Made by a program: the position numbers. DNA of 64,000 nucleotides from assembly GCA_963729715.1 (NCBI GenBank), contig CAVSPA010000005.1, positions 320,001-384,000 on the forward strand, given 5' to 3'. Below, in pieces: positions 40,301-43,300 of the stretch. The stretch comes from an uncultured delta proteobacterium. GTDB taxonomy: Bacteria > Desulfobacterota > Syntrophia > Syntrophales > UBA2185. The stretch's first letter is position 1; every line of letters starts with the position of its first letter.

Positions 40301-43300
40301 TGAAGCTCCGCATCCTTCAATGCGTCAATCACGTCTTTGGTGTCCGGGGGGCAGCCGGTCACCTTTATCGCCTTCTTGATATGCGCATTTTCCTTGTTTG
40401 CCTTTATGATACAATTGCCTATGAGAATGGTATTATCATACCCTCTTTGTGCTTGCATTTTTTTGCCGTTGAGGATCTCAACCTTCGGAAGGGGCTGACC
40501 CGTAAATGCCGACAGCACAAGGATATTCACCATGTTGGCAAGAGGGGTGCATCCAGAGCAGAGAGTTTCATCATACTTGCGTAAGGCGACACCTGTCACA
40601 CCGAATTTCTCAAAGATGGAAGGGCCAGTGTTATCTTTCGTCCATCCCCAGTCCCATTTGAACGATTTGATATGATTTTCCAAGGCCTCACCTCTGATAG
40701 CATAATCTCCGAGGTCGAGAGACTTGCCGTCACGTTTGGCATACTCAACGAAATGGACTATGTCCTGCGGGTCGTAACCTATAGTTTTTGCCGCAACTAT
40801 GTCGGCTCCAAGGATATCGCGGGACGCAATTATAATGCCTTTCCTGAATGCGTTTCCGAAGTGAAGAGGGCCTCGCTCCAAGGCGTAGATACCGTCCACA
40901 ATGGTTAATGCCGGCTTTACGCAATCGGCGATGAATGTGAAACAATACTCCAGGCCGGGACTCGCATGATGGCAGATCTTCTTGGAGGAGGTTCTCAGGC
41001 AGCCTTTAAGATTTTTCAGCCCCAGGGATACTTTCGTCTGGGCGTGGGTTTTCAGAACGGGGAAGTTGATAAGAAAGTCGGACTCCACAGCCTCTTTTGC
41101 GATATGGAGAGTAGGTCCTCCCGGGATTTTGAAATTTACGGATTCGCTGGCATTAAAATCTACGAGCTTGACCCCGTACTTTCTTGCCAGTGAGTAGTAG
41201 CCGAGACCTGCGAAGGCCGCCATGGTACCAACACCCTTTTGAACTTGAACCGATCCCTCACCGATGGATATTTCTCTGCATCCGTGATCCTTGAGCATGA
41301 GGACCAGATCTTTGACGAGACGTGTCGTTGTAAACACGCCGAATGGCGCTATCTTGAACTTATCGTCCCATGTAATAAGATTTGGTTTAATTAGTACCCT
41401 GGCATTTCTCTCCAGTTCTTCAAGGCCGCAGCAAAGCTCGACGGCCTCTCTGAGAGAATCGGGACTGCCGGCATATTGAACCAACGATATGAGCGGACTC
41501 ATGGCTCGCTTCCTTTGATAGAAACGTTACGTTGCTTATCCGAACGCGTAATTTTCAGGAGTCAGGTGGCATGACGTTATGCTTTCATGTACGAGTTGAA
41601 CCACTCCATCGCATCCTCGTCTTTGATTCCCAATTTCTTACTGTGATCGGGTTTGAATAATGCAAAGGTTCCTGTGGATTTTGCGCAAAGTTCCCCGGCT
41701 GCGTTGAAGATCATTGCCTCTGCAAGGCATTCGCGATCATTTTTGACTTCGATCACTTTCCCCACGGCCTTCAATTCCTTATCAATCGTGACGGGCTTCA
41801 GGAAGTCAACCTTCATAGACTTGGTCATTCCGAGGCATCTCATTTTATGAATAACGGCCCTCCCCATGACTTCGTCCAGGATAGTTGATATGATCCCACC
41901 GTGGACGAGGTTCTTCCATCCGCAGAGATGGGCGGGCACCCTAACCCATGAAGAAATCGATTCTCCGTCAGTGAAAAATTCCAAGCGTAGCCCTGCCTGG
42001 TTAGCCGGGCTGCACCCAAAACACATGCTGTCACTCCTGTTTGGCAGATGTTTGAGATCTTCTTTCCCGTTCATAAGGTAACGCTCCGTTGGAATCGCAG
42101 TCGGCTATACATAGTATCCGTGTCGTACCTTTACCATATTTCAAATTATGATTCTGCGATTTTTTGAGCACACCGGCTTGAAATTGTTCGTTAATAGATT
42201 CAAGAAGGAAAAACTCTTCAGCAAGGGCTGATCAGAGGTTACCGCAGGATATTTGCACGATAAGACGACTACCCTTCGACCGTCTTTACGTGAGAAGAAA
42301 AAATTTATTTAAACCACGGATAATTTTACGTTGGTTCGTCTGTGTCCTTAATATTGCGGGCGCATTCCGGCGTCAAAGGCCTTGAATTCGAAATAACTGA
42401 CAGTGAAAATCAAACCCGTGAGACAAAAAAAGGGTGGATGGTAAAAGGAGGGAAAAAGGAACCATCCACCCGCTCGCTATATAGACTGAAAGGGATCATG
42501 AATGCTGATCCTCTCTCAGAATCTCTGGAAAGGGGGTCGATGGACGGCAAAGGAGGGAAGGGAAACCATCCATCGATCTTAAATCAATTTCAAGCAGAAC
42601 TAAATCTCGTCGATAAAGAAATCAGGGAAAAAATGTTACGCTTTATTCATATACTATGAGTCCAGCGAGACCCCAGGAGCAATGCCTTTCATGAATTATT
42701 TCATCAGATTAAAATCCCAAAGGTGTCTTCCTGCCTTCTGAGGTCTCGTAATTAACAATCTAGCAAAATAGATGCCAAGCTTGAAATTAACAAAAAAGGA
42801 AATTCAAATTATACAGAATTTTCCTATAAAAACAGACTATTACGAAATTTAAGGATATTGCTATTTTCATTGATGCAAAGGCAATGTGACAAGTTGCAAC
42901 GAGGCACCAGCAAGCAAATAGTGCGATTCCTGCACAACATAAACTCTCATGAAATTGGCAAATGCGCGAACAGCTAATATCTTGCCTTCTGTGCATTAGT
43001 AGCACATTATGTGCGATAATGGCACATAGAAAAGTTGTTTTGAAAGGGATAAGAAAAGAGCGTATGGATCCTCAAAAAATGCCGCAATTGGCAATTCTTT
43101 GAAACTCCATTTTCTTCAAATTTCTGAATTTTACATTTACGATATCTGTCGACAATTAAGAGAGATCGACGATAGAAATAGTATTTTTGTGATAGCGAAA
43201 TTCTCATGGATGAAATATAATAATACCAATGTCTTGGATTCCCGCCTCCGCGAGATTGCAGCTTGAAATATTCAATAAGAGGATTCATCCATGGATGGCT

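Follow-up and report, generated by a model that had tools for sequence, protein, structure and literature searches.

Sequence comparison supports the view that the flagged element is a conserved structured RNA gene of the order Syntrophales, uncatalogued in Rfam and with two covarying hairpins, and we think it likely that this RNA holds back translation initiation in these syntrophic bacteria. The element lies in a window of 64,000 nt (the whole stretch of DNA analysed), i.e. positions 320,001-384,000 of contig CAVSPA010000005.1 from an uncultured member of the Syntrophales (UBA2185); this contig is called C5 below. Our best explanation, held with moderate confidence, is a minus-strand RNA driven by sigma-54 and an activator, whose anti-Shine-Dalgarno (anti-SD) loops would pair in trans with Shine-Dalgarno sites and lower translation. 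At the level of sequence analysis we could establish the strand, the terminator and the fold, the motifs of the promoter and of the activator sites, the association with the activator gene and the loss of the ORF by deletion; we infer that a signal is sensed, that the loops base-pair with Shine-Dalgarno sequences and that target messages exist.

If this reading holds, most sampled families of an order of slow-growing syntrophic anaerobes would share a one-input, one-output circuit, in which a cytoplasmic tandem-GAF sensor acts through sigma-54 on an RNA whose loops copy exactly the sequence by which the ribosome recognizes mRNAs. Such a circuit would give a defined handle on how Syntrophales throttle or re-direct translation.

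Fold, strand and distribution of the RNA

The first-pass annotation had described three genomic copies and two long hairpins with covarying stems, and we recovered both. The copies are on C5 (the window copy), C3 and C4, and C9 of the same genome additionally carries a single hairpin of the element. The two long hairpins have 18-nt loops, and a third conserved hairpin lies between them. Hairpin 1 (42536-42578, minus strand) carries UUCCCUCCUUU in its loop at 42548-42565 and has 11 pairs, five of them compensatory, with 98.9% of cells paired. Hairpin 2 (42486-42519, minus strand; CUGAGAG...CUUUCAG) has 7 pairs, three of them compensatory. Its conserved G·U pair takes this form in 17 of 26 sequences. 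Hairpin 3 (42432-42471, minus strand), which is the terminator stem, carries UUCCCUCCUUUU in its loop at 42443-42460 and has 9 conserved pairs with 100% of cells paired; its covariation is thin, with double changes at one pair and four pairs invariant. Over the 27 aligned sequences, with 27 pairs and 697 stem cells, 98.1% of the cells are paired against 94.0+-0.4 in shuffles. Double changes were found at 9 pairs and in 32 cells, against 4.2 and 8.6 in shuffles, and 0 of 500 shuffles were as high, although kinship among the 27 sequences inflates these shuffle statistics. Slid controls of the alignment left 36-56% of cells paired.

Judged from its sequence, the RNA is transcribed from the minus strand of the window. 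It had been placed on the plus strand before, and the terminator, the G·U and A·C counts, the promoter orientation and the model scores all favour minus. The fold z score is -4.77 on the minus strand (0/200 shuffles as good) and -2.06 on the plus strand (6/200). The 697 stem cells contain 44 G·U against two A·C combinations, so that the 98.1% of cells pairing on the minus strand would fall to 92.1% on the plus strand. The covariance model R1 scores 148.7 bits at the window locus on the minus strand and 33.2 bits on the plus strand, and a search of the element's plus strand for a promoter or a terminator found neither.

Hairpin 3 is directly followed by a U7 tract (42425-42431, minus strand), and this G+C-rich stem of 9-11 bp with its U-run has the form of an intrinsic terminator. 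In the 8 nt that follow the last stem, 25 of 27 homologs have at least six T and the other two have five, which overturns the earlier remark that no clear terminator exists; the A-run reported before the hairpins is the same U-run read backwards. A simple terminator scan, which allowed loops of 3-8 nt only, did not list hairpin 3. An 18-nt loop is unusually large for a terminator, which counts against our best explanation.

Both 18-nt loops read UUCCCUCCUUU on the minus strand and contain the octamer CCUCCUUU, which is identical to the 3' tail of the 16S rRNA (the 16S 3' end on C11 is GGAUCACCUCCUUUCU); the likeness ends with the octamer. The motif CCCUCCUU does not vary in hairpin 1 and hardly varies in hairpin 3, and the loop sequence is strictly kept across homologs whereas the stems vary. 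Since the minus strand is transcribed, the loops would copy the anti-Shine-Dalgarno sequence and not imitate a ribosome-binding site; the purine loop AAAGGAGGGAA previously called invariant is the antisense of the real one. The transcribed strand shows CCUCC loops, and GGA is confined to the antisense strand. With CCUCCUUU on the transcribed strand, the RNA would bind ribosome-binding sites instead of titrating CsrA or ribosomes by mimicking them, as had been proposed, and the strand correction turns follow-up away from CsrA.

The proposed conservation across Syntrophales stands: the element was found in 47 of 151 genomes by BLAST and in 92 of 151 by the covariance model, the latter covering 43 of the 53 genera sampled. 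The stronger claim of none outside the order has to be softened. We obtained five weak matches of 24-29 bits in ~146 genomes of other orders, two of which are lone terminator hairpins with an anti-SD loop that lack the sigma-54 motif and three of which look unrelated or doubtful. As the first-pass annotation stated, no Rfam 15 family matches at threshold, and we found nothing on the RNA in the window gap at E<=10 or in six loci at E<=1. One CsrC fragment match sits at the edge of locus L048, away from the RNA. The openly accessible literature yielded no description of this RNA, of any anti-SD sRNA of Syntrophales or Deltaproteobacteria, or of the activator.

Promoter, activator and upstream small ORF

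The RNA is preceded by a predicted sigma-54 (-24/-12) promoter at 42762-42777 on the minus strand (TGGCAT-N5-TTGCT). Two sets of related loci were compared, and the motif precedes the RNA in 28 of 29 loci in one and 16 of 21 in the other, with a chance match of 0.03 per 700 nt. Three putative activator sites, each a palindrome TGTGC-N7-GCACA, lie further upstream at 43010-43026 (at -249 from the promoter), 42990-43006 and 42920-42936, and the triad recurs across related loci at about -247/-227/-158. Among 28 promoter loci, all have at least one palindrome and 23 have at least two, with conserved spacing, the expectation being 0.097 sites per 330 nt. Only the three RNA copies of this genome have a good triad ahead of a promoter at the conserved spacing; three other combinations were of poorer quality.

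Of 58 loci, 37 have an orthologous activator gene immediately upstream, in the same orientation. Across the 151 genomes, 87 have both the RNA and the activator, 5 the RNA only, 3 the activator only and 56 neither, a table that is inflated by kinship of the genomes. In family f15, the sole two RNA-positive genomes are also the sole two activator-positive ones. The activator is a tandem-GAF enhancer-binding protein; its best NCBIfam match is NifA, with 366.7 bits where 528.85 are needed, and it reaches no NCBIfam equivalog cut-off. An association with cydAB, seen in two lineages, makes oxygen, redox or NO stress a candidate signal. The genome also has rpoN. Going by these motifs, the RNA probably depends on sigma-54 in vivo.

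The predicted primary transcript is ~327 nt (42425-42751, minus strand), from a +1 at 42751 that was placed by promoter geometry to the end of the U-run. Its predicted fold (z = -4.36) leaves both anti-SD loops unpaired. It would begin with a structured 5' leader (42666-42748, minus strand) closed by a long-range stem between 42740-42748 and 42666-42674, and this leader structure is conserved in family f1 and locus L026 only. For relatives with 90-95% identity, three peat metatranscriptome studies contain single contigs that span the leader, the ORF and the hairpins; such contigs show neither strand nor RNA ends, and RNA libraries can contain DNA. The contigs extend ~100 nt beyond the terminator. 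The upstream ends of three of them fall at 42724-42734, i.e. 17-27 nt inside the predicted +1, two of these ends abut adapter letters, and no piece from the peat contigs covers 42741-42900 of the window. A metatranscriptome search gave small shares only (0.05 of words) in 7 peat runs, four of which were compared with the window piece by piece; the window's own organism was not found in these runs, the best likeness being 90-99% over short pieces. RNase E/G is encoded in the genome, and the RNA might be processed. A shorter species that begins in the AU-rich linker ahead of hairpin 1 may also exist.

The upstream region is not devoid of conserved neighbours, as had been thought from the three copies: besides the promoter and the three activator sites, a small ORF precedes the RNA in 27 of 29 related loci, encoding an acidic protein of ~70 aa with two FF motifs. 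In most relatives the ORF would come first on the same transcript, so that the RNA there would be the tail of a small-protein mRNA. Aligned with loci L002-L005 and the C3 copy, the window copy misses ~207 nt and has a further 2-nt deletion, with the hairpins intact. What is left of the ORF is its 3' end (SVTFFP*; 42622-42642, minus strand), which lies shortly 3' of the deletion junction (~42645/42646). The ORF was thus cleanly deleted, and the window copy would be a stand-alone RNA. We count at least six predicted RNA-only loci beyond it (L065, L066, L071, L072, L077 and L079), in which 75-206 nt separate the promoter from the first loop; L080 is a looser form of this version. The small protein belongs to no family that we could recognize: 0 of 14 proteins scored above a Pfam cut-off, DUF1127 included, with sub-threshold chance matches only; four proteins matched no NCBIfam family, and the Atlas gave no usable match. 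Every one of 151 homologs is a 'hypothetical protein' or unnamed.

Proposed action and alternative readings

We propose that the tandem-GAF activator would bind the three TGTGC-N7-GCACA sites and, once bound, fire the -24/-12 promoter, and that RNA synthesis would stop at the intrinsic terminator. The octamer CCUCCUUU would then be displayed in the 18-nt loops of the first and last hairpins and could pair in trans with the Shine-Dalgarno sites of mRNAs. The paired loops would keep 30S subunits off and translation would fall, as proposed for the CcsR/cuckoo RNAs. Action in trans is suggested by the hairpins that the window copy kept despite the ORF deletion, by the ORF-less loci with a promoter, and by family f2, whose loci have two or three anti-SD hairpins in tandem. 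Hfq was sought in the genome (100% complete) and not found, so the loop pairing would have to work independently of Hfq. To look for targets, the two loops were run with RNAduplex against 8458 candidate start regions; the result was noisy, most of the listed starts being internal or doubtful, and we claim no target from it. The five annotated top sites (an MFS transporter, an acetyl-CoA hydrolase/transferase, a GemA-like protein, a histidine kinase and one of unknown function) have no common theme; the first two are the best natural sites.

The loops could instead serve a cis-acting 3' tail, pairing with a Shine-Dalgarno-like box near the start of the small ORF on their own mRNA so as to control its translation or stability with no trans targets, a reading that we consider rather unlikely. 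The ORF adjoins the RNA in the 27 of 29 loci noted above. A Shine-Dalgarno-like element at -20..-4 is absent from all 27 small ORFs compared, and 18 of them have GGAG or GAGG at +3..+16, compared with 332 of 2785 background ORFs (11.9%), so a cis role of the loops fits as well. Against it, the window copy and at least six other loci, which lost the ORF with its box or never possessed them, keep their anti-SD hairpins intact under the same promoter, and families f16 and f6 mostly do without the box inside the ORF. Full-length folds of 12 ORF-bearing transcripts left the loops mostly unpaired, with three loci differing; nested folding cannot model a contact between a loop and the linear ORF.

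Pairing in trans, our preferred reading, also has a broader version that we regard as improbable: a sensor-controlled ribosome competitor, in which induced anti-SD copies would cover Shine-Dalgarno sites genome-wide and shift translation to SD-independent messages. Each RNA would supply the octamer two or three times, and a genome has as many as three or four such genes. The small acidic protein would itself be among the SD-independent messages, given the absence of an upstream Shine-Dalgarno element from all 27 such ORFs. The gene ychF is a conserved convergent neighbour of the RNA. YchF is a modulator of leaderless and D/E-rich translation in E. coli, and for this reason ychF may share in the same reprogramming module.

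We give a low probability to the loops being a decoy of the 16S 3' end, which would titrate a protein that recognizes the anti-SD tail (candidate classes would be initiation factors, proteins of the small subunit and ribonucleases) or be bound by the co-encoded small protein. The eight-letter identity with the 16S tail and the strict conservation of loops on variable stems would fit, and so would, by analogy, the binding of co-transcribed CcsR RNAs by the CcaF1 protein described in PMC8034643. The 16S likeness is limited to the octamer, we found no candidate partner, and the small protein is strongly acidic, of no known family and missing from the RNA-only loci, all of which argue against a decoy.

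It is very unlikely that the element is a plus-strand sRNA with AAAGGAGGGAA loops that titrate CsrA or ribosomes by resembling CsrA sites or ribosome-binding sites. The genome does have csrA, as the first-pass annotation said (PF02599 match at C10:37048-37203, 89.7 bits), and the two long hairpins also fold on the plus strand, with the 33.2 bits given above. The plus strand has neither promoter nor terminator, the 44 G·U pairs would turn into A·C mismatches, no CsrB-type Rfam family matches, and the terminator, sigma-54 promoter, activator sites, ORF and activator gene point to the minus strand; we rejected this candidate on the terminator, the G·U and A·C counts, the promoter orientation and the model scores. 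A mere terminator or repeated intergenic element without a regulatory role of its own, which the last hairpin with its U-run and the several copies per genome might suggest, is hardly credible given 18-nt loops kept over 43 of 53 sampled genera while the stems covary, the same loop on a second, non-terminator hairpin, a dedicated promoter with activator sites and a co-inherited activator, and the existence of RNA-only genes.

Relation to known regulatory RNAs

Several sRNA genes lie beside genes of sigma-54 activators, e.g. CrcZ after cbrB, NrsZ after ntrC, Qrr1 beside luxO and GlmY beside glrR. The RNA described here resembles them in its -24/-12 promoter, its activator sites and the activator gene directly upstream, and the sRNA would be the output of the enhancer-binding protein; these RNAs form a class and not a homology family. 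It differs from them in an unrelated RNA sequence and a tandem-GAF activator, and they act via Hfq/Crc or through CA-rich or specific seeds rather than copies of the 16S anti-SD. GlnZ is said to originate in the 3'UTR of NtrC-dependent glnA. The 3'UTR-derived sRNAs (CcsR, GlnZ and CpxQ type) are cut from the primary transcript of the ORF ahead of them; at our loci, library contigs bridge the ORF and the hairpins, although contigs are no proof of one transcript.

RsaE/RoxS and the RNAIII-type sRNAs of S. aureus use unpaired C-rich loops to pair with G-rich ribosome-binding sites independently of Hfq. By analogy, our RNA would likewise offer C-rich loop motifs to G-rich ribosome-binding sites without Hfq. 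Folds, motifs (theirs being CCCC/UCCC), promoters and taxa are different, with homology compared by the Rfam scan alone. Of the CsrB/RsmZ class, the genome has the encoded CsrA; GGA loops and a match to the Rfam clan model are lacking.

The closest design is that of the CcsR1-4/cuckoo RNAs of Alphaproteobacteria (RSs0680a-d, alpha-r14, Rfam RF02344), defined in PMC4615179 by 2-4 adjacent hairpins, each loop with CCUCCUCCC. Going by PMC4615179 and PMC8034643 for the cuckoo RNAs, the two groups share adjacent hairpins with anti-SD-like loops, 1-4 per unit and in several copies per genome, an ORF of ~70 aa ahead that is, in our loci by prediction, co-transcribed, a terminator after the hairpins and a stress-type alternative promoter, and occlusion of ribosome-binding sites is the mechanism proposed for both. 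Unlike theirs, our loop motif is UUCCCUCCUUU, the last motif-bearing hairpin is the terminator itself, the protein encoded ahead of the hairpins is acidic, has FF motifs and lacks DUF1127, and sigma-54 with a dedicated activator takes the place of the RpoHI/HII promoter. The sequences are unrelated, RF02344 not being among the Rfam matches (E<=10 for the window gap, E<=1 for six loci), the phylum is another one, and no Hfq was found here. If our reading is true, this would be a second, independently evolved design of a small ORF plus anti-SD hairpins after that of the Alphaproteobacteria, and a test case for the question of whether cuckoo RNAs act globally or on chosen messages.

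The RNA, its strand and its loops

Two long hairpins, each with an 18-nt loop, occupy window 42432-42471 and 42536-42578, in agreement with the first-pass annotation, which had placed two such hairpins inside 42394-42624. A shorter conserved hairpin lies between them (42486-42519). BLAST against the source genome gave, besides the window copy on contig C5, a second full copy of the RNA on C3 (86% over 222 nt) and a partial copy on C4 with the first hairpin only (73% over 124 nt). No Rfam 15 family reached the threshold in window 41000-43800 (E<=10) or in six related loci (E<=1), as the annotation had also stated. 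Since copies were found in the genome and no Rfam family was matched, the element is real and uncatalogued.

Judged from its sequence, the true strand of the RNA is the minus strand, opposite to that proposed earlier. The "A-run" described before the hairpins is actually a minus-strand U7 (42425-42431) directly after hairpin 42432-42471. We aligned 27 two-hairpin sequences from the order Syntrophales (alignments A1 and A2), and 25 of them have at least 6 T among the 8 nt past the last stem, with 5 T in the remaining two. The fold z is -4.77 on the minus strand (0/200 shuffles as good) versus -2.06 on the plus strand (6/200). The three helices, 27 pairs in total, hold 44 G·U cells against 2 A·C cells, leaving out one outermost column pair with 17 further A·C cells, so that 98.1% of the 697 cells pair on the minus strand and 92.1% would on the plus strand. 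R1, a covariance model built on the minus-strand orientation, scores the three copies at 148.7, 145.7 and 57.5 bits on that strand versus 33.2 bits for the window copy on the plus strand. The terminator U-run, fold z, G·U/A·C counts and R1 scores thus all favour the minus strand.

RNAalifold predicts all three helices. The paired fraction of 98.1% compares with 94.0+-0.4 in shuffles, double-sided changes affect 9 pairs and 32 cells (4.2+-1.0 and 8.6+-2.4 in shuffles), and the covariation score is 0.224 (0.144 in shuffles); 0/500 shuffles were as high on any of these measures, figures that are not probabilities because the aligned sequences are related. Slid controls pair at 36-56%. The support is strongest for hairpins 1 (42536-42578) and 2 (42486-42519), while hairpin 3, the terminator stem, has one double-change pair only.

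Each long-hairpin loop contains CCUCCUUU, the anti-Shine-Dalgarno (anti-SD) octamer of the organism's own ribosome, since the loop core, UUCCCUCCUUU, invariant on the minus strand in the alignments, and the end of the 16S gene on contig C11, GGAUCACCUCCUUUCU, share it. The predicted 327-nt transcript (42751 to 42425) folds with z = -4.36 and leaves both loops unpaired. Its 5' leader (42650-42750, minus strand) folds into a long hairpin domain (outer stem GAGACCUC...GAGGUCUC, inner ACCUUU...AAAGGU), which is kept in family f1 and in locus L026; the other families have short leaders without it. Behind the ORF, loci of family f2 have two or three anti-SD hairpins in tandem. In one of them, L048:1413-1745 (+), there are three, with a C-run and then a G-run after each; hairpin 2 and an ordinary terminator come next, and the whole unit is flanked by the activator gene and ychF.

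Related hairpins were also seen elsewhere. The BLAST search of the source genome also gave a lone hairpin outside the window, at C9:28089-28132 (+), which shares the anti-SD loop and has a near-identical stem and no U-run (R1 score 32.6 bits). Two loci from other orders of the phylum, L050:1501-1574 (-) and L051:1501-1560 (+), have a single terminator-like hairpin with loop UUUCCCUCCUUUC and then a T-run, and no sigma-54 motif was found near either. There may be a broader, looser class of anti-SD-loop terminators.

Promoter, activator and neighbouring genes

An alignment of the window copy, the C3 copy and loci from the same genus gave a sigma-54 -24/-12 promoter, TGGCAT-N5-TTGCT, at 42762-42777 (minus strand). 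Allowing at most one mismatch with GG and GC fixed, we found this motif to precede the first loop by 220-456 nt in 28 of 29 loci, a contig end truncating the remaining one; its frequency in the whole genome is 0.045 per kb per strand, and 0.03 would be expected by chance per 700 nt. Upstream of the promoter are three activator-site palindromes, TGTGC-N7-GCACA, at 43010-43026, 42990-43006 and 42920-42936. At least one palindrome is present at each of the 28 promoter loci and two or more at 23 of them, with a conserved spacing of ~-247/-227/-158 (chance expectation 0.097 per 330 nt). In the source genome, good triads at this spacing upstream of a promoter are confined to the three RNA copies, the other promoter and palindrome combinations being three with poor palindromes and different spacings. 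The genome encodes rpoN.

Directly upstream of the C4 copy and in the same orientation is the gene of the activator, a 711-aa protein that combines two GAF stretches with sigma-54 interaction and HTH_8 domains and falls below every NCBIfam equivalog cut-off. Its orthologs lie directly upstream of the RNA in 11/20 loci by Pfam and 37/58 by tblastn. Among 151 genomes of the class, all from one order, the covariance model found the RNA in 92 (43/53 genera), and 90 have a full-length activator ortholog (E<=1e-100, 51-96% identity, one per genome). RNA and activator occur together in 87 genomes; 5 have just the RNA, 3 just the activator and 56 neither. This table overstates independence, since a single family (f15) accounts for most of the genomes lacking both. 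Within f15 the RNA is confined to two genomes, and these are also the only two with the activator.

Several neighbours of the RNA are leads only. The gene ychF is convergent and 3' of the RNA in 20/58 loci, including the C4 copy; E. coli YchF influences leaderless and D/E-rich translation (PMC8138138 and PMC11814078). The Pfam-confirmed cydA (43291-44673, plus strand) is divergent from the RNA and starts ~265 nt beyond the activator sites, with a probable cydB (44677-45690, plus strand) assigned by position as the next ORF downstream. A divergent cydA also occurs in three same-genus loci, and cydB is convergent to the RNA at L016. This neighbourhood may point to a connection with oxygen or redox. 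A 4HBT-family thioesterase gene (41577-42074, minus strand) follows the terminator by ~350 nt on the same strand; the downstream neighbour is not conserved, since same-genus loci have a PCC-domain gene instead. The 105-codon ORF overlapping the RNA in antisense (42342-42659, plus strand) has a frame that is not conserved among relatives and is best treated as spurious.

A small ORF, lost in the window copy

An ORF of 60-85 codons ends -2 to 45 nt upstream of hairpin 1 in 27/29 loci, the exceptions being the window copy and one locus with masked letters. The ORF is probably translated under weak constraint, as differences are most frequent at third codon positions (671/609/910 for positions 1/2/3) and neither alternative frame is open in any of the 25 ORFs examined. 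Its product is acidic and variable, invariant only in two FF pairs within EYxFF(L/I/V)SE-like and FFL(P/S) motifs, and matches no Pfam or NCBIfam family. None of its 151 database homologs has a name other than "hypothetical protein", and wherever a source is named it is a Syntrophales, Syntrophaceae or Deltaproteobacteria assembly.

The window copy has cleanly lost ~207 nt, including the start codon, and retains the promoter, leader, hairpins and a frame-shifted ORF remnant, SVTFFP* (42622-42642). Six of 24 loci in a second set from other families (L065, L066, L071, L072, L077, L079) are also ORF-less, their promoter preceding the first loop by only 75-206 nt; L080, whose promoter is looser, makes seven. 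That the RNA is retained whether or not the ORF is there argues for its working on its own.

A small share of the stretch is present in seven peat metatranscriptome runs, four of which were compared at contig level. Single contigs of relatives from three studies (641, 631 and 415 letters, at 90-95% identity) run from window 42678-42734 through 252 extra letters to 42626-42419. The extra letters are the ORF missing from the window, so the contigs bridge leader, ORF and hairpins. They indicate presence in RNA libraries and do not prove a single transcript, since they show neither strand nor ends and RNA libraries can hold DNA.

Mode of action and known systems

We favour, with some confidence, an activator-induced RNA acting in trans. 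The activator would turn on the RNA upon a signal sensed by its GAF domains, and the loops would pair with Shine-Dalgarno sites of other mRNAs and block translation initiation. Five observations point to trans pairing: the loops copy the anti-SD exactly, they are large and unpaired, each RNA has one to three of them with several genes to a genome, loss of the ORF leaves the RNA in place, and the design is that of the CcsR/cuckoo RNAs. The RNA may also be processed; RNase E/G is present in the source genome (100%-complete), and Hfq was not found there.

The main rival, which we regard as unlikely, is that the loops pair in cis with a GGAG/GAGG box inside the small ORF of their own mRNA. Such a box lies at +3..+16 in 18/27 small ORFs versus 332/2785 (11.9%) background ORFs, and all 27 (L002-L030) lack an SD-like element at -20..-4, but the ORF-less copies weaken this explanation. 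It is less probable still that the loops are a decoy of the 16S tail for some protein. A plus-strand CsrA or ribosome sponge, as first proposed, and a mere terminator or repeat are both highly improbable.

A literature search found no description of this RNA. Membership tests rejected a CsrB-type RNA, and a cuckoo RNA was rejected as well, given the different loop motif, the absence of an RF02344 match and an ORF that does not encode DUF1127. The way of working would nevertheless be like that of the CcsR/cuckoo RNAs, and the regulation like that of sigma-54/activator-coupled sRNAs.
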